Program-made: the position numbers and the translations under genes
The notes under the pieces: model-generated
The model's input: the letters and a program-made list of their open reading frames with translations, nothing else
Told to the model about the DNA's origin: nothing
The model's database searches: none
Shown here: positions 1 to 6,888 of the stretch, piece by piece
Layout of the letters: every line of letters starts with the position of its first letter
Position numbering within the stretch: the stretch's first letter is position 1
Source of the DNA: a virus
Taxonomy: Duplodnaviria > Heunggongvirae > Uroviricota > Caudoviricetes
Virus record (IMG/VR): IMGVR_UViG_2713896780_000027
Direction: 5' to 3' (one strand)
Length of the DNA: 12,085 nucleotides

Positions 1-294
1 GCGTATGGTCAACCTGACAACCCGGTGTCCTCAACGGGGAAGGAATAACCCCTCCATACTTACCGCCGCGCCATTTCGCGGATTGCCACAACCGGAAGCG
101 CACGGTCGACGAAAATTTAACGACAGGCTATCTATGAACCAGCTACCTCGCCGTGCGCTTTCGCGTTATGGTCTGACTTTTCAGAGAAATATCCTTTCAG
201 TAAACTGTCAGTGCCGGATGTTCACCCGTGTCCGGCGCACGCACTCCACTTCACCCGTGGAGAACTCCTTAATTACCAACCCTCAGGAGGGTGA

Positions 295-528
295 ATGTTA
301 AAATCAACTCTTATTGCTAAATGCCTTTATCAAAATCGCATGGTAAGCAGCATTTCAATAGGCGAGTCTGCAGTTAAAAGTATTTTCGAAGAGTACTTTC
401 CCGGGCATGATTTTAATAAATGGAATACCAAATTACCGCCAGCAGTTTCAACGCGTATTCTGAAAGCAACCGAAAGAGCAAGTACAATTCGCGTTAACTA
501 TTTCATTAAAGATTTGTGGGATCTTTGA
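295..528 (+). CDS. hypothetical small protein (77 aa), low-GC accessory gene
   Basis: ATG at 295 with AGGAGG about 6 nt upstream (287-292). AT-rich coding sequence contrasts with the GC-rich leader at 1-294. Its 3' end overlaps the convergent 135-aa gene by about 23 bp. No family recognised. Confidence 0.4.
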   Translation: MLKSTLIAKCLYQNRMVSSISIGESAVKSIFEEYFPGHDFNKWNTKLPPAVSTRILKATERASTIRVNYFIKDLWDL

Positions 529-913
529 TATCCACAGAGCCTAAAGTATGTGCATATGGATGTGCTATTATGCGCCCTCGCAGATTTGCATCATTTTCTA
601 AATTCACTGAACGAAACAGGGCATCAACAAGGCTCTGTACAATGCAAAGGCAATCGAAGACTGTCGCCGTTTCTGTTTTGATTGATGAAAGAACATGGCC
701 ATTCACGCAAACAGAAATTACCCGTTTATTAACATCGCTTTCCTGCTTTTGATTATCAGAACCATATAGCCCAGAAAAAGCATTGCGCACATTACGAACC
801 ATATTATCGATGGTTTCTTTTTCTGCGGTACTAAGGTCAAGAGTAGCCAGTTGTGAACGAACTATATTCGATGCCATTTCCTGTAATGGCGTTGGTAAAT
901 CTTTAAATTCCAT
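506..913 (-). CDS. hypothetical protein (135 aa), last gene of the leftward early operon
   Basis: ATG at 913 (minus) preceded by GAGG. Co-oriented with the upstream 72-aa and 118-aa genes, separated from the former by only 22 bp. Low GC. No family recognised. Confidence 0.5.
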   Translation of the reverse strand: MEFKDLPTPLQEMASNIVRSQLATLDLSTAEKETIDNMVRNVRNAFSGLYGSDNQKQESDVNKRVISVCVNGHVLSSIKTETATVFDCLCIVQSLVDALFRSVNLENDANLRGRIIAHPYAHTLGSVDIKDPTNL

Positions 914-935: not shown

Positions 936-1154
936 TTAACGTGGGTATGTAATCATTCTGGCAATGCTTAATGCCGCTGCTTTTTCCAGATTGGTGATAT
1001 CCTGCTCCAGAGCGGACAGATTTTCAGCCTGCTTAGCCCTGGCTTCATTGGCCCATTTCAGGTCCTGCACCGCCTTAATTTTCTGGTGCATCCACTCATA
1101 AAGTTCATCATCGGTATAGTCTGGCGCGATGATGACGGGGTCTCGTTTCTGCAT
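936..1154 (-). CDS. hypothetical small protein (72 aa)
   Basis: ATG at 1154 (minus) with a strong AAGGAG Shine-Dalgarno 5 nt upstream. Predicted acidic/helical product. Sits in the leftward operon downstream of the repressor gene. Confidence 0.55.
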   Translation of the reverse strand: MQKRDPVIIAPDYTDDELYEWMHQKIKAVQDLKWANEARAKQAENLSALEQDITNLEKAAALSIARMITYPR

Positions 1155-1226: not shown

Positions 1227-1583
1227 TTACTCGAGAGGAAATTGGTTATGAATACAATCAAGTTTTCTTGCCCAGAATGTGGTGGCTAAGTCTTTGACAC
1301 ATCCTTTAAGCCGCAGGGCTCTGACAGTTTCGCGGGAGCCATCTGCAAAAATTGTGGTCACCTTGTAACTGAAGATGAGTCCTCGCAGTTCGATGACGAA
1401 ATCGTTGACAATATCTTCGGTGCACTCACCAGAGACTTTCTGAAGTAAAGGCGCATACCGCTTAGTTACCGCTCTGATAACTCTTACCTGTCCGGCAATG
1501 GCGCTGATATCAATATAAAGCGCCATCGCTGTTTCTTTGCTGATCCCTGGACGCCTTCCATTCTGATGTTTGACTTCGCCCAC
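1227..1583 (-). CDS. hypothetical protein (118 aa)
   Basis: GTG start at 1583 (minus) preceded by AGAGGA with 7-nt spacing. An internal ATG (Met20) is an alternative start. First ORF downstream of the dicA-like gene on the same strand. Confidence 0.45.
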   Translation of the reverse strand: MGEVKHQNGRRPGISKETAMALYIDISAIAGQVRVIRAVTKRYAPLLQKVSGECTEDIVNDFVIELRGLIFSYKVTTIFADGSRETVRALRLKGCVKDLATTFWARKLDCIHNQFPLE

Positions 1584-1790: not shown

Positions 1791-2198
1791 TTATTTATTT
1801 GCGCTTCTTTTGCGAGCTTTGAGTAGTTCTTCAAAAAGTTTGTTGAAATTCTCAACTCGAGCACGCATCTCTGACAACAGAGCCTTTTGCTCTGACTCAG
1901 GCAGTGCGTCGAACAGTTGAAGCAACTCTTTTTGATCTTCTGTCAGATTGACTGGCTGATTATCTGGGATCGGTTCGCCTGGTTGCTTATCTTCATCTCC
2001 AAAAAGAAGCCAAGTCGGCGAGCACTGAAGCGCCTGGCTCAGTGCGAATAATCTCTTCCCCGCTGGCTGTGTTTCATCTCTTTCCCATTGAGAAATTGTT
2101 ACGTGAGCCACTTTGACCAGCTTACCTAATGCGGCCTGAGACAGTTTTAATTTTTTTCGCCTGTATAAGAGGCGAGCACCGAAGGTTTCGTTTTTCAT
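1791..2198 (-). CDS. dicA: DicA-like CI-type prophage repressor (HTH XRE family), 135 aa
   Basis: Translation carries an N-terminal HTH (LSQAALGKLVKVAHVTISQWER) and the motifs LFALSQALQCSPTWLLFGDEDKQP and NFNKLFEELLKARKR. These match my recollection of E. coli Qin DicA closely, and the length is the same. It is divergent from a Cro-like gene. Confidence 0.75.
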   Translation of the reverse strand: MKNETFGARLLYRRKKLKLSQAALGKLVKVAHVTISQWERDETQPAGKRLFALSQALQCSPTWLLFGDEDKQPGEPIPDNQPVNLTEDQKELLQLFDALPESEQKALLSEMRARVENFNKLFEELLKARKRSANK

Positions 2199-2274: not shown

Positions 2275-2502
2275 ATGTTGAAAATTGATGCTATAGCGTT
2301 TTTTGGCAGCAAAACAAAGCTTGCCAATGTCGCAGGAGTTAGGCTGGCAAGCGTTGCTGCATGGGGGGAACTGGTTCCTGAAGGTCGCGCGATGCGCCTG
2401 CAAGAGGCATCCGGCGGGGAACTTCAGTACGACCCCAAAGTTTATGACGAATATCGTAAGGCAAAGCGGGCGGGGCGGTTGAACAATGAAAATCACCACT
2501 GA
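2275..2502 (+). CDS. dicC: Cro-like regulator of the DicC/YdaS family, 75 aa
   Basis: ATG at 2275 with AAGGGG upstream. Divergent from the dicA-like gene. Product resembles DicC/YdaS-type Cro proteins (FFGSKTKLANVAGV...GRAMRLQEASGGELQYDP). Confidence 0.6.
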   Translation: MLKIDAIAFFGSKTKLANVAGVRLASVAAWGELVPEGRAMRLQEASGGELQYDPKVYDEYRKAKRAGRLNNENHH

Positions 2503-3037
2503 ACAGGTTTGTGAGGCTCTGGATACCTGGGTATGCCGACCAGGAATGACACAGGAGCAGGCGACGATATTAATCACGGAAGCATTCTGGGCTCTGAAAG
2601 AACGCCCGAACATCGATGTTCAACGCGTCACGTTTAATGATGGCGAGGTTGATCAACGGGCGCTGGGCGTTAACCGGGTGAAGATATTCGAACGCTGGAA
2701 AGCTATCGACACCAGAGATAAGCGTGACAAATTCACGGCGCTGATTCCGGCAATTATGGAGGCTATCCGGATCAGCGATTTCAGATTGTATTGTGAAATT
2801 ACTGACGGAAAAAGCATTACGTACATGATCGCCGGGTTAAACAAAGAATATGGCGATGTGGTGGAGTCCGGGCTGCTTTTTGCGGATCCAGTTGTTGTGG
2901 AACGTGAGACTGACGAGCTTATAGAAAAAGCTATTGCTTTCAAGCACGCGTATCGTCAGCAATACCAATATTACTTTGCAGATAAACAAATGTCTGCCAG
3001 GGGTTCGTATGAGTATCGATGCACTACGATGGGCTAA
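2486..3037 (+). CDS. YdaT-like protein (CII-like regulator/toxin-domain family), 183 aa
   Basis: ATG at 2486 overlaps the end of the cro-like gene by 17 bp. Position and N-terminal sequence are consistent with the YdaT proteins that follow YdaS/Cro in Rac and CP-933P-type prophages. The C-terminal 29 bp overlap the O-like start. Confidence 0.55.
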   Translation: MKITTEQVCEALDTWVCRPGMTQEQATILITEAFWALKERPNIDVQRVTFNDGEVDQRALGVNRVKIFERWKAIDTRDKRDKFTALIPAIMEAIRISDFRLYCEITDGKSITYMIAGLNKEYGDVVESGLLFADPVVVERETDELIEKAIAFKHAYRQQYQYYFADKQMSARGSYEYRCTTMG

Positions 3038-4049
3038 AAAGGTGAAAACCGGCAGTTCATCCAGTAAGTCAGTATTGACCTGGCTTGCTGATATGTGCGG
3101 TGCCGATTTGTGTGCATACCCGTCTGTATCTGCACTGGCAGAAGTAACGGAACTGAACAAAAAGACTGTGCAGGACAGCTTACGACACCTGATGGAGATT
3201 GGGTTAATTGTTGATACCGGTGAGAGAAAAGGCAGAACAAAGCAAATTGTGGTGTACCGACTTATCGGTGTAGAAGAAAGTGTTGCCGAGCCTGAATACA
3301 CCCAAAAACGGGAGTCTTTAAAGGTGGGTAAAATTGGTGCTGTTAATAAAAACAGTACCGAAAATGGTTATGTTTCAGCACAAAACAGACCCAAAAACAG
3401 AACTCTTAGCTGCATGGAAAATAACCAAAGACACCCAAATTTTCCATCAAAGACACCCAAAAACGGATCACGGAACCCAAAGGAACCCAAAGATCTAAAC
3501 CCCACACATAACGCACGCGAGAGTGCTCCGACCAGTGAGCAGGAAGTTTTGTCGTTACAGGCAGCCCCCCCTGTATTCCTGTATGGCCTGAGCGAACCCA
3601 TCGGAAAATTCCCGATGAGCGATAGCTGGTATCCGTCACGGGATTTTCGACGACGGGCTGCGTTGTGGGGGATGGCTTTGCCGGAGACAGAATTTACACC
3701 TGCTGAACTTGCCGCCTTCCGGGACTACTGGGCAGCGGAGGGGAAAGTGTTTACGCAGATTCAGTGGGAGCAGAAATTCGCCCGTCACGTAAATCACGTC
3801 AGGGCGCAGGTTAAACCAGTCAGCAAAGGGGTAAACCATGCAGCAGCACCAGGTGGCACCGCATCACGGGCAGTTCAGGAAATTCGGGCAGCACGTGAGC
3901 AGTGGGAACGTGAAAACGGATTTATCAGCGACGGAAACGGCCTGGAAGCTGTGGGAACTCATGGGGGAGGTTTATTCGAACCGCTGGACCCAGAAGAACG
4001 GGGCCGCACCATCGAAGCTCTGGATTGCACAGATTGGCGCGATGACTGA
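3009..4049 (+). CDS. replication initiator, lambda O-like (N-terminal HTH, low-complexity linker, C-terminal DnaT-like domain)
   Basis: ATG at 3009 (MSIDALRWAKK...) with AGGGG upstream; the longer ORF from 2934 was rejected. N-terminal winged-helix region, P/K/N-rich linker encoded by the iteron repeats, and a DnaT-like C-terminal region (FTPAELAAFRDYWAAEG...). The last 212 bp overlap the P-like gene out of frame. Confidence 0.65.
   Translation: MSIDALRWAKKVKTGSSSSKSVLTWLADMCGADLCAYPSVSALAEVTELNKKTVQDSLRHLMEIGLIVDTGERKGRTKQIVVYRLIGVEESVAEPEYTQKRESLKVGKIGAVNKNSTENGYVSAQNRPKNRTLSCMENNQRHPNFPSKTPKNGSRNPKEPKDLNPTHNARESAPTSEQEVLSLQAAPPVFLYGLSEPIGKFPMSDSWYPSRDFRRRAALWGMALPETEFTPAELAAFRDYWAAEGKVFTQIQWEQKFARHVNHVRAQVKPVSKGVNHAAAPGGTASRAVQEIRAAREQWERENGFISDGNGLEAVGTHGGGLFEPLDPEERGRTIEALDCTDWRDD
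3386..3495. repeat. iteron-like direct repeats (candidate phage origin) inside the O-like gene
   Basis: At least five copies of an (A/G)ACCCAAA core within about 110 bp (AGACCCAAAAACAG, AGACACCCAAATTTT, AGACACCCAAAAACGG, GGAACCCAAAGG, GAACCCAAAGATC). They lie in the linker-coding part of the initiator gene, as in the lambda ori. Confidence 0.5.
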
Positions 4050-4503
4050 GCAGCAAATCCGGCAGGTCTGCCGCCAGTGCATGGACCGCTGCCGGGCGGG
4101 TGAAACATGGCCTCCGGACCTGGCTGAGTTTGTGGCACTGATTTCGAAAAGCGGAGCCAATCCATTCGGTCTGACGGTGGATGCTGTGATGGAGGAGTAC
4201 CGCCGCTGGCGCAATGAGTCCTGGCGATACGACGGAAGTGATAAGTACCCGTGGTCTCAGCCTGTGCTGTATCACATTTGCCTCGAGATGCGTTCAAAGG
4301 GGATTGAGCGCCAGATGACCGAAGGGGAATTAAAACGGCTTGCAGAACGGCAACTGACGAAATGGGCAAAGCATGTTAGTAACGGCCTGAGCGTTCCGCC
4401 AGTCCGGCGACAACTGGCGGCCCCCAAACGCCCGTCGGGGCCAACGCCAATTGAGTTGCTGAAACAGGAATATGAACGCCGGAAAGCGGCTGGTTTTGTT
4501 TGA
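3838..4503 (+). CDS. replication protein P-like helicase loader (lambda P family)
   Basis: C-terminal half resembles lambda P as I recall it (YPWSQPVLYHICLEMR... against YPWKSNAHYWLVTNLY...). ATG at 3838 has AAAGGGG 6 nt upstream. Alternative starts are GTG 3910, ATG 3961 and ATG 4042. Confidence 0.65.
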   Translation: MQQHQVAPHHGQFRKFGQHVSSGNVKTDLSATETAWKLWELMGEVYSNRWTQKNGAAPSKLWIAQIGAMTEQQIRQVCRQCMDRCRAGETWPPDLAEFVALISKSGANPFGLTVDAVMEEYRRWRNESWRYDGSDKYPWSQPVLYHICLEMRSKGIERQMTEGELKRLAERQLTKWAKHVSNGLSVPPVRRQLAAPKRPSGPTPIELLKQEYERRKAAGFV

Positions 4504-4536
4504 GTTGAGAAGTGATTTTTTACCGGGAGGAAATTT

Positions 4537-5271
4537 ATGGAGACTGTTTTTGACGCACTGAAAGCGATGGGAAAAGCCACGTCGGTAGAGCTGGCTGCGC
4601 GACTTGATATCAGTCGTGAAGAAGTACTGAACGAGCTGTGGGAACTGAAAAAGGCTGGCTTCGTTGATAAAAGCGTATACACCTGGCGTGTGGCTGATAA
4701 CAACGTTCAGCAGGAACAGCCAGCGCCAGAAGAAACCACCACGGCAACAGAAGCGAAAATCTCAGAGTGCGATTTAACCGCGACGATTGAACAACGCGGA
4801 CCACAAACGGCGGATGAACTGGCTACGCTGTTCGGTACAACATCCCGCAAAGTTGCTTCAACGCTGGCAATGGCAATCAGCAAAGGTCGTCTGATTCGCG
4901 TAAACCAGAACGGTAAAATTCGTTACTGCATACCAGGTGATAATTTACCAGCAGAGCCGAAAGTTGAATCGGTAGCGGAAACCGATGGTAAAGCCTTTCC
5001 TCAGCCAGCCGGTGTTGCGTTACCGGTACAGAAAGATGCAACACAGGAAGATATTAAAACAGAAACTGTGGCGGACATTGTGCAGTCGCTGCCATCGTTT
5101 ACTGCAACGCGAGAAGATGATTTGATTTTGCCATCGCTGCATATGGCAAATCGCGAACTGCGTAGGGCGAAGAATCATGTCCAGAAGTGGGAGCGAGTCT
5201 GCGCCGCGCTGCGGGAGCTGAACAAGCACCGGGATATGGTTGCCGGGATTTGTCGGAAGTCCGGGCAATGA
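4537..5271 (+). CDS. conserved prophage protein, DUF1627-like, 244 aa
   Basis: ATG at 4537 with a strong GGGAGG Shine-Dalgarno. N-terminal winged-helix-like segment followed by an acidic/Thr-rich linker. Sits immediately after O/P, as in many lambdoid prophages. Family assignment is from memory only. Confidence 0.5.
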
Positions 5272-6129: not shown

Positions 6130-6888
6130 ATGAGGAACATAATGGCAGGTTTTTTAATATTCCTGTCTTCTGCTGCTTATGCTGATATCAATCTGTATGG
6201 TCCTGGTGGCCCGCATACAGCCTTGCTTGATGCAGCCAAACTTTATGCCGAAAAAACAGGTATTATAGTGAACGTTCATTACGGCCCACAGAACAAATGG
6301 AATGAAGATGCCAAAAAAAATGCAGATATCTTGTTTGGCGCATCAGAACAATCTGCTCTGGCTATCATTCGGGACCATAAAGACAGCTTCAGTGAAAAAG
6401 ATATTCAGCCTCTTTATCTGCGAAAAAGTATTTTACTGGTAAAGAAAGGTAATCCTAAAAATATCCGGAGTATTGACGACCTGACCAGACCTGGGATTGG
6501 CGTAATTGTTAATGATGGTGGTGGTACCAGTAATACATCAGGCACTGGCGTCTGGGAAGATATTGCCGGACGTAAAGGGAATATAGAAACTGTCGCCGCA
6601 ATCCGAAAAAATATTATTTTATATGCGCCCAATAGCGGAACTGCACGTAAGGCTCTTGAGAATCAGCCTGGAGCAGATGTCTGGATAACCTGGGCTGACT
6701 GGGCAGCCAGTAATCCAGAAATTGGTGATGTCGTGGAAATAGCGCCAGACTACGTGATATGGCGTGATATGAACATTACAGTACGTCAGGATGCAAATGA
6801 TGAAACCCGTCGATTTGCAGAATGGCTACAAACCGATGAAGCGGCGCCTGCATTCAAAAAATATGGCTGGACCAGGAAAGGCACTTGA
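6130..6888 (+). CDS. secreted periplasmic solute-binding protein, ModA/AcfC-like (type II PBP fold), 252 aa
   Basis: GGAG 6 nt upstream of ATG 6130. Sec-type signal peptide (MRNIMAGFLIFLSSAAYA, AXA cleavage motif). Mature sequence resembles molybdate/sulfate-binding proteins and the AcfC family, including the C-terminal AFKKYGW motif. GC is well below the flanking phage genes. Confidence 0.65.
   Translation: MRNIMAGFLIFLSSAAYADINLYGPGGPHTALLDAAKLYAEKTGIIVNVHYGPQNKWNEDAKKNADILFGASEQSALAIIRDHKDSFSEKDIQPLYLRKSILLVKKGNPKNIRSIDDLTRPGIGVIVNDGGGTSNTSGTGVWEDIAGRKGNIETVAAIRKNIILYAPNSGTARKALENQPGADVWITWADWAASNPEIGDVVEIAPDYVIWRDMNITVRQDANDETRRFAEWLQTDEAAPAFKKYGWTRKGT

Follow-up and report, generated by a model that had tools for sequence, protein, structure and literature searches.

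Background

Two kinds of described prophage locus, the sieB genes of Rac, lambda and P22 and the dicBF operon of Qin, are closest to the subject of this report, a pair of convergent genes coding for proteins of 77 and 135 amino acids (aa) near the left end of a 12,085-nucleotide (nt) stretch of DNA, called the window throughout, from a virus of the Caudoviricetes (IMG/VR record IMGVR_UViG_2713896780_000027). SieB is expressed by the prophage and aborts the lytic growth of related phages and not that of its own phage (PMC10883804). In the Rac prophage of E. coli K-12 the gene order is racR, ydaG, ydaF (coding for a DUF1391 protein), sieB, which is convergent with a 3' overlap of 4 nt, the small RNA (sRNA) gene kilS and then kilR. 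A phage-made escape function, Esc, is known for SieB. At the locus of the window the order is a dicA-like repressor gene, a 118-aa open reading frame (ORF), ydfC, the 135-aa gene, the convergent 77-aa gene (p77 hereafter), DicF and dicB. Hence p77 occupies the sieB slot of Rac, and DicF and dicB stand in the place of kilS and kilR. Like sieB, p77 is read against the early-left operon, has a short convergent 3' overlap and comes before an sRNA and a division inhibitor. Unlike SieB, the p77 protein has 77 aa and no hydrophobic membrane-type segment, and it has no sequence or fold similarity to SieB. The antagonist that we propose for it below, VNG, would also be the product of a separate convergent early gene, whereas Esc is an in-frame product of the same gene.

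The dicBF operon of K-12 has a long untranslated segment in which dicF lies, its polycistronic transcript is cut by RNase E and RNase III, which frees DicF, and it is toxic when expressed (PMC5069750). Positions 1-281 and 916-1154 of the window are that operon (ydfABC, long untranslated region, DicF, dicB, ydfD), and the immunity region is of the DicA/DicC type. The window differs from Qin in having a 634-bp cassette, which carries the pair, and a different segment of ~360 bp that replaces ydfA and ydfB. The first 1200 bp of the window are 100% identical to "PPompW" prophages, which are lambda-like defective prophages at ompW in Shiga toxin-producing E. coli (STEC) O145:H28 and its relatives (PMC8112680), and the window is a Qin-type defective lambdoid prophage of this group.

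Two other kinds of system resemble the pair in part. BstA with its aba element is alike in concept, being a lysogen-expressed anti-phage function that the prophage has to turn off in order to grow lytically itself (bioRxiv 10.1101/2020.07.13.199331). The self-immunity proposed here would rest on a protein and on convergent transcription and not on a DNA element, and there is no homology. The OOP RNA of lambda converges on the 3' end of cII, and this arrangement and the 3'-overlapping type I toxin-antitoxin pairs are like the present one in that convergent units overlap at their 3' ends next to a lysis-lysogeny switch; the difference is that both partners here are conserved proteins and neither is a non-coding RNA. 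The general kind of locus is familiar, an accessory cassette in the immunity-proximal early-left region at the sieB slot. Its architecture is unusual, with two conserved protein genes that overlap tail-to-tail and of which one appears to be tied to each state of the prophage switch. In the literature that could be searched, neither the pair nor the slot is described.

Conservation of p77 and VNG as a pair

The p77 gene is the ORF at 295-528 (+), with its ATG at 295 and a strong ribosome-binding site (RBS), AGGAGG, at 285-290, and the 135-aa gene is the ORF at 506-913 (-). The initial annotation, which was made from the sequence alone, had described both as an AT-rich convergent pair with a 3' overlap of about 23 bp, and this description stands: the GC content is 0.363 for p77 and 0.397 for the 135-aa gene, and the overlap is exactly 23 nt (506-528, both strands), where p77 ends ..FIKDLWDL* and the 135-aa protein ends ..DIKDPTNL*. 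That neither protein could be assigned to a family also held in library searches, since neither is in Pfam, NCBIfam or PADLOC and the only full-length matches were PHROGs of unknown function, phrog_10348 for p77 and phrog_1363 for the 135-aa protein; the searched libraries describe neither family. At E values up to 1, PADLOC-DB 2.0 had no match for any of four products, namely p77, the 135-aa protein, YdfC and the product of the 118-aa ORF.

A homologue of the C-terminal part of the 135-aa protein converges on p77 in all 19 related loci that were examined, which represent at least 8 distinct lineages. The overlap is 23 nt in 15 of the 19 and 26 nt in 2; in the other 2, p77 is frameshifted and stops early, leaving no overlap. 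The homologous part (~aa 62-135 of the 135-aa protein, ~75 aa, encoded at 506-730 (-)) was delimited by these partners, which are homologous to that part only, and we call it the VNG domain; its motifs are VNG, T..A...DY and LExEAN..GKTIxH. Over 16 loci the pairwise identity matrices of p77 and VNG correlate with r = 0.88, and p77 is the slower-evolving of the two, the mean pairwise identity being 0.67 for p77 vs 0.48 for VNG. Both genes are more than chance ORFs, as is seen from the p77 family and from the spread of the pair among E. coli genomes (both below). Judged by this joint conservation, p77 and VNG have been shown to be an evolutionarily coupled pair and a real module. No homologue of known function was found for either protein and the two are conserved together across distant prophages. 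Among the elements at this end of the window, the pair is the main one without an assignment, in line with the initial annotation, which had called it the main unassigned candidate.

The p77 family comprises 33 clusters at 90% identity and has 20 invariant columns. Its core is always 77-78 aa long, and longer database entries merely add upstream residues. Homologues with 55-72% identity occur in Klebsiella, Salmonella, Serratia, Yersinia, Dickeya, Xenorhabdus and Morganella, and a genome scan added Proteus and Photorhabdus to these hosts. The protein is predicted by AlphaFold2 to be all-helical, with a five-helix fold (predicted local distance difference test, pLDDT, 96.8; predicted template modelling score, pTM, 0.86). 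No solved or viral predicted structure resembles it; Foldseek against BFVD returned only its own family, and sequence-profile searches of the PDB with the p77 and VNG alignments gave no match.

The VNG domain stands alone in proteins of 73-95 aa and is fused in others of 172-199 aa, where it lies behind a YdfC-like segment (L084 of our numbered loci, 193 aa, 4212-4793 (-)) or, in L077, behind a segment with four cysteines (CxxC...CxxxC). The E. coli fusion has a two-helix domain of ~50 aa at its N-terminus, in front of VNG (MEFKDLP...GLY; 764-913 (-) in the window), and this domain is lacking in the other genera. PHROGs 6937, 2151, 9419 and 33007 match only aa 1-55 to 1-72 of the 135-aa protein, and the same VNG/p77 occurs with two alleles of the N-terminal domain. 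The VNG family is tiny, with ~5 true clusters among 1.84 billion representatives; this count comes from exhaustive phmmer, as a word-indexed search reached only close E. coli relatives. Two phmmer matches, P0156 and P0158, were rejected as low-complexity false hits. The AlphaFold2 model of the 135-aa protein is poor (pLDDT 50), with a beta-hairpin at 65-79 and a helix at 85-111. The most conserved stretch of VNG, the C-terminal tail at 112-135, is left unmodelled, as might be expected of a segment that needs a partner in order to fold.

The pair was compared with known classes of two-gene modules. The partner genes are convergent and not co-directional, as a type II toxin-antitoxin operon would have them, and in library scans neither partner was homologous to a toxin or antitoxin family that is known. 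Nor is the pair of the type I or cis-antisense RNA kind, since both partners are conserved as proteins and there is no Rfam match in 1-2300. A bidirectional terminator within the 23-nt overlap was considered and rejected because L072 does not conserve the AAAGAT/ATCTTT stem of the window. The place of VNG as the first gene after the early-left promoter suggested an antiterminator like N, but this was also rejected, as no arginine-rich N-terminus could be read from the sequences.

A YdfC-like coiled-coil ORF lies directly upstream of VNG in L002 (4480-4707 (-)), L082, L081 (4425-4655 (-)) and the window (936-1154 (-)). In the window this is the ydfC homologue of 72 aa (annotated ydfC in LC567818; phrog_1744), which adjoins the 135-aa gene upstream on the operon strand. 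The recurrence of YdfC beside VNG or fused to it hints that YdfC may work with the module.

The 634-bp cassette and the polymorphic slot

The two genes lie in a cassette of 634 bp (282-915, both strands) between ydfC and the dicF spacer, and its ends were set by homology breakpoints: homology to the cassette-less phage L086 stops at 281/282 and restarts at ~916. An imperfect 19-nt repeat is found at both junctions, AACTCCTTAATTACCAACC at 263-281 and AAATCTTTAAATTCCATTA at 897-915. The cassette carries the RBS of p77 but no upstream region of its own, and in K-12 Qin, which is without it, ydfC and the spacer adjoin. Of 5426 complete E. coli genomes, 659 (12%) have the cassette, mostly at >=99% identity, and the carriers include O157:H7, O145, O121, O111 and O55:H7. 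Only 12 of the deposited phage genomes have it, and all of these annotate it as hypothetical. These results show that 282-915 is a mobile two-gene cassette inside the dicBF early-left operon.

The site of the cassette was surveyed in 91 E. coli loci that carry a gene for the N-terminal domain. In the E. coli loci L087-L176 this slot, which corresponds to 282-915 of the window and has ydfC (or ydfA) on one side and the dicF spacer on the other, is polymorphic. The N-terminal domain is the shared flank of the slot, and proteins of 106-212 aa begin with it; at least six unrelated C-terminal types follow the shared ~50 aa. At least seven unrelated small convergent genes (63, 64, 69, 73, 91, 100 and 148 aa) use the slot, and their 3' overlaps, measured for five of them, range from 0 to 77 nt. 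Six of these genes match PHROGs of unknown function, and none matches a Pfam family. Likewise, there was no Pfam match for VNG or for the two other full-length slot proteins that were scanned, those of the 212-aa and 124-aa types, and so no recognisable toxin domain. Five C-terminal types pair one-to-one with a convergent gene of their own (12/12, 3/3, 4/4, 3/3 and 5/5 loci). The 124-aa type has no convergent gene in ~40 loci or has either of two, and a third accompanies its shortened form of 106/109 aa. Such cassettes could be exchanged through the conserved flanks, which are formed by the sequence that encodes the N-terminal domain and, at the opposite end, by the leader and spacer.

The layout of a conserved N-terminus with at least six unrelated C-termini, five of them each with its own convergent small gene, is like that of polymorphic toxin-immunity systems. 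It differs from these in that the partner is convergent and not co-directional, in that the 124-aa type is unmatched or goes with any of three genes, and in that there is no recognisable toxin domain or secretion signal; besides, the VNG proteins of other genera do not have the shared N-terminus.

Variants of 201 aa, which are also present in Salmonella, share 65-83% identity with the 135-aa protein across 99% of the latter's length. In their E. coli loci (L087-L089, gene at 3001-3606 (+)) the last VNG residues are replaced by a tail of ~70 aa, and the gene faces a different gene of 63 aa (3584-3775 (-)), again with an overlap of exactly 23 nt and with the RBS context that is also found upstream of p77, CTCAGGAGGGTGAA. 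Since VNG is retained here without p77, it must have some function that is independent of p77.

These data raise the question whether p77 and VNG are simply independent accessory genes ("morons") that are held together only because their coding ends overlap and recombination cannot part them without damage. That the slot is a general insertion hot spot, where the same 124-aa gene is found beside any of three convergent genes or beside none and where at least seven unrelated small convergent genes are used, is what independence would predict, as is the different partner of VNG in the 201-aa variants. However, lambdoid mosaicism normally separates neighbours that have no functional link, and the pair persists at 57-69% (p77) and 29-39% (VNG) identity to the window in spite of changed flanks, fusions and hosts. 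Moreover, the overlap stays at 23 or 26 nt wherever p77 is intact, and the correlated identity matrices give no sign of partner swapping. On this evidence we consider it quite unlikely that the two genes are independent.

The GC-rich region upstream of p77

The 294 bp before p77 have a GC content of 0.541 vs 0.491 for the whole window, and the initial annotation had taken them for a structured leader of p77, non-coding in all frames, at the far end of the early-left operon. The pair is in fact in the middle of the operon: on the minus strand the order in the window is repressor, 118-aa ORF, ydfC, 135-aa gene and non-coding 1-281, and past the left edge of the window the operon goes on with DicF and dicB, followed by a ydfD-like gene, the pseudogene of an exonuclease, and xis and int. 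The segment 1-281 (-) belongs to the backbone and is the ydfC-dicF spacer, that is, the long untranslated region of a Qin-type dicBF operon. This was recognised by identity to K-12 Qin, whose ydfC-dicF intergenic region the spacer matches at 96% over 659 nt; the match ends at window 281, which corresponds to 21 nt past the K-12 ydfC stop. The same segment is 98% identical to the spacer of phage vB_EcoS-813R8, and both K-12 Qin and this phage have the spacer and lack the gene pair. The DicF gene was found by Rfam (RF00039, 76.7 bits with a gathering score of 48) at L001 4799-4850 (-), and since window position 1 is L001 4891, it lies 41-92 nt to the left of window position 1; dicB, annotated at L001 4436-4624 (-), comes after it. 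A weak STnc100-like match (38.7 bits, under the gathering score) lies between DicF and dicB, over the dicB leader. No Rfam family was found in 1-913, either with the whole window at the gathering threshold or with 1-2300 at a permissive threshold. Even without a function for the pair there is a gain in annotation, as the GC-rich stretch is now the spacer of the DicF precursor and the DicF/dicB division-inhibitor module adjoins the pair.

The claim that this stretch is non-coding in all frames is not literally correct because an ORF of 98 aa is open at 5-301, but the conclusion that it is non-coding holds. We judge 1-294 to be non-coding because ORF 5-301 has no match in Pfam, the only library scanned for it, and because 78 natural variants of the spacer differ by indels of 1-4 nt and of 29 nt, not multiples of three.

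The same 78 distinct variants were used to ask which strand is structured as RNA, since at helix sites a G.U or an A.C tells which strand's RNA pairs. In helices 32-39/49-56 and 124-126/132-134, and at the variable sites of the long hairpin 87-111/146-170, G-C changes to A.C on the plus strand and to G.U on the minus strand, so that only the dicBF transcript keeps the pairing. In the long hairpin there is also one constant G.U that speaks for the plus strand instead. The strand-discriminating sites in 1-170 thus mostly favour a minus-strand RNA structure. In helices 171-186, 211-238 and 279-292, G.U is found on the plus strand and A.C is almost absent, and helix 171-186 has a compensatory change of T-A to C-G with U.G intermediates. 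Only this proximal part, ~171-294, has features compatible with structure on the plus strand.

Therefore, a leader structure for p77 can hold at most for the last 85-125 nt. That the whole GC-rich stretch is a structured leader belonging to p77 was suggested by single-sequence folding of 1-300, where the plus strand gave z = -3.2 (none of 200 shuffles folded as well) and the minus strand z = -1.7, and the proximal helices and the covarying pairing described below agree with it in part. But 1-281 is there at 96-98% identity where p77 is absent, the region has been described as the dicF-containing untranslated region of dicBF (PMC5069750), and the discriminating sites in 1-170 are mostly minus-strand, which makes a dedicated leader of this length highly improbable.

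The segment 171-294 (+) is a candidate promoter and 5' leader of p77, as judged by invariance, helix changes and hexamers. Positions 172-240 are almost invariant among the 78 variants. The promoter-like hexamers TTTTCA (178-183) and TAAACT (201-206) are spaced by 17 nt and match at 8 of 12 positions, which is under the threshold of the scanner. The putative leader hairpins are 171-176/181-186, 213-218/231-236 and 244-249/257-262, and an anti-Shine-Dalgarno (anti-SD) sequence, CTCCT at 265-269, can pair with the SD in AGGAGG at 285-290. This pairing covaries between leader types, being CTCCT/AGGAG in one and CTCCAT/ATGGAG in the other, which serves other small genes of the slot; there are two conserved leader types in the slot and in both the anti-SD pairs with the RBS. 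Homology of the p77 leader to the Rac sieB leader was looked for and none was found.

Probable timing of expression and proposed roles

In three Klebsiella-type prophages (L072, L078 and L083) the stop of a cI-type repressor gene is followed by a terminator, a sigma-70 promoter and then VNG as the first gene. The promoters are TTGACT-16-TAATAT in L072, TTGACA-16-CATAAT (11 of 12 positions) in L078 and, by eye, TTGACC-17-TAGATT in L083. The L072 promoter overlaps a 17-nt copy of the operator (OR) that lies between cI and cro. This order and the operator copy argue that VNG is an immediate-early gene under repressor control. The p77 gene lies head-on to the repressor-controlled early-left promoter. 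Outside E. coli, ~80 nt upstream of p77 are conserved and contain TTCACC-16-TGgTAT(T)CTT and a hairpin covering the SD, and it is plausible that the former is an extended -10 promoter of p77. From these features we infer that p77 is expressed in the lysogen. No plus-strand terminator was found before 959-976, and hence the p77 transcript could be antisense to the whole 135-aa gene.

Two side observations concern the surroundings of p77 in other genera. In Klebsiella-type prophages (L072 ~3767-3911; L074, L075 and L078) a non-coding block of ~150 nt upstream of p77 is conserved at 84% identity where the flanking genes differ; Rfam, run on eight related loci, had no match for it. In Xenorhabdus/Photorhabdus-type prophages, small ORFs just beyond p77 on the early-left strand (L070 3721-3900 (-), L071 3725-3919 (-) and L081 ~3640-3849 (-)) have CsrA-like N-termini (MLILTRR..IGDDI..), recognised by eye.

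The position of the pair in the sieB slot and a partner under early-left repressor control make a role in exclusion or in lysogen/lytic antagonism plausible by analogy. We propose exclusion with self-immunity because the closest system by position and logic is sieB with its escape function. According to this proposal, p77 would be transcribed from its own strand in the lysogen, when the early-left promoter is shut, and VNG would be made only once the prophage repressor frees that promoter, as the very first gene there in simpler prophages. Upon induction or infection, early-left transcription would run head-on through the p77 gene and its upstream region, silencing p77 by collision and antisense pairing and at the same time supplying VNG, which would bind p77 via its conserved unstructured C-terminal tail and neutralise it. 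Thus p77 would be a lysogen-state effector that most plausibly excludes or aborts other phages, and VNG a lytic-state antagonist that gives self-immunity. This is the reading that we prefer, and we hold it tentatively, with distinctly less than even confidence.

Several observations weigh against it. The scanner at its threshold found no p77 promoter in the window, L072 or L078, and because the E. coli cassette brings only an RBS, p77 must rely on the backbone spacer for its transcription. VNG is kept without p77 in the 201-aa variants. Single partners are also disrupted: VNG stays open in both loci where p77 is frameshifted (L004 and L085), and in 1 of 53 E. coli contigs it is the 135-aa gene that has a frameshift, beside an intact p77. 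It is the missing promoter, the 201-aa variants and these disruptions that keep our confidence in the mechanism low. In addition, p77 is homologous neither to SieB nor to any defence family, its sequence, as read directly, has no hydrophobic stretch long enough to span a membrane, and a distant homologue in Psychrosphaera has no partner. Finally, PPompW is defective, which may make a lytic-cycle role irrelevant in this host.

The same facts can be read with the roles reversed, so that VNG would be an immediate-early effector, for host take-over or anti-defence or as a mild toxin, and p77 a lysogen-made antidote or immunity protein against leaky early-left expression or against the VNG of a superinfecting relative. 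VNG is the first early-left gene in three lineages and is maintained without p77 in the 201-aa variants, the same operon carries the cell-division inhibitors DicF and DicB (PMC5069750), and the conserved N-terminus with variable C-termini and a variable convergent small gene resembles a toxin-immunity layout, all of which would fit. Yet p77 is the partner that is frameshifted in L004 and L085 while VNG is intact, and an essential antidote should not be the first to go. The supposed effector evolves faster than the supposed antidote, and no toxin-like domain was detected. We therefore regard the reversal as unlikely, if slightly less so than independence of the two genes.

It has also to be asked whether the effect is mainly in cis, the p77 transcription unit being a convergent, antisense insulator that in the lysogen damps early-left read-through into the toxic DicF/dicB, with the protein secondary. 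The geometry is right for this, since p77 is head-on and lies between the early-left promoter and DicF/dicB, dicBF is toxic on expression (PMC5069750), and there is no plus-strand terminator before 959-976. However, p77 is constrained as a protein, with its constant length, 20 invariant residues and a pLDDT of 96.8, and the pair is also found in prophages where ~4 kb of flank to the left and to the right contain no homologue of dicB and give no match to DicF or to another Rfam family. Such an explanation is very unlikely to be the main one.

If exclusion by p77 with VNG as its antagonist is correct, a new protein family pair would join the few prophage exclusion functions that have a built-in self-immunity. 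Qin- and Rac-type prophages are very common in E. coli, including O157, O145, O121 and O111 STEC, and their slot, which is defined and easy to search for, would then be a reservoir of small accessory genes. A wider generalisation, which we put forward as possible but rather doubtful, is that the pair is a two-state prophage module across Enterobacterales, in which a helical effector made in the lysogen blocks phages or modifies the host and an immediate-early partner on the opposite strand switches it off by convergent transcription and binding, the slot in Qin- and Rac-type E. coli prophages being a hot spot of at least seven such interchangeable cassettes.

Other features of the prophage

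The GenBank-annotated 118-aa ORF lies at 1227-1583 (-). Antisense to it, at 1248-1448 (+), is a 66-aa zinc-ribbon ORF (CPECGG...CKNCGH; RBS GAGGAAA); if this is the strand that codes, p77 would not be the only gene in opposition to the early-left operon. Phage vB_EcoS-813R8 has the ORF intact, and in the window it has a nonsense codon at position 14 (GAA to TAA). In related E. coli prophages, toxin-antitoxin pairs of the PaaA2-ParE or HigB type lie between the repressor gene and the DUF1391 gene (L088 1694-2172, L095 1192-1673 and L094 1007-1671), and this gap is another variable slot of the early-left region.

Pfam scans of the window support a lambdoid gene order. They identified a helix-turn-helix repressor gene annotated dicA at 1791-2198 (-), a P22-Cro-type gene annotated dicC at 2275-2502 (+) and, among the other lambdoid genes, YdaT-like, DnaT-domain and lambda-P-like replication genes, a Paa/AdfO-type gene, DUF968, RusA and Q. 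The Paa/AdfO gene at 6130-6888 (+) codes for 252 aa (Pfam SBP_bac_11), is low in GC and is annotated as an adherence factor; it forms an insertion that separates the replication genes from DUF968 and RusA of the nin region. Between this gene and the genes downstream, positions 7124-7195 are 72 successive N (masked or unresolved). After the Q antiterminator gene there are three tRNA genes (Met-CAT, Lys-TTT and Arg-TCT) at 10304-10544 (+), found with ARAGORN, and directly after these, at the right end of the window, an IS110-family transposase gene at 10658-11854 (-), found with Pfam. Loss of the lysis cassette mediated by insertion sequences has been published for PPompW (PMC8112680), and the tRNA genes and the IS110 transposase gene after Q are consistent with it.

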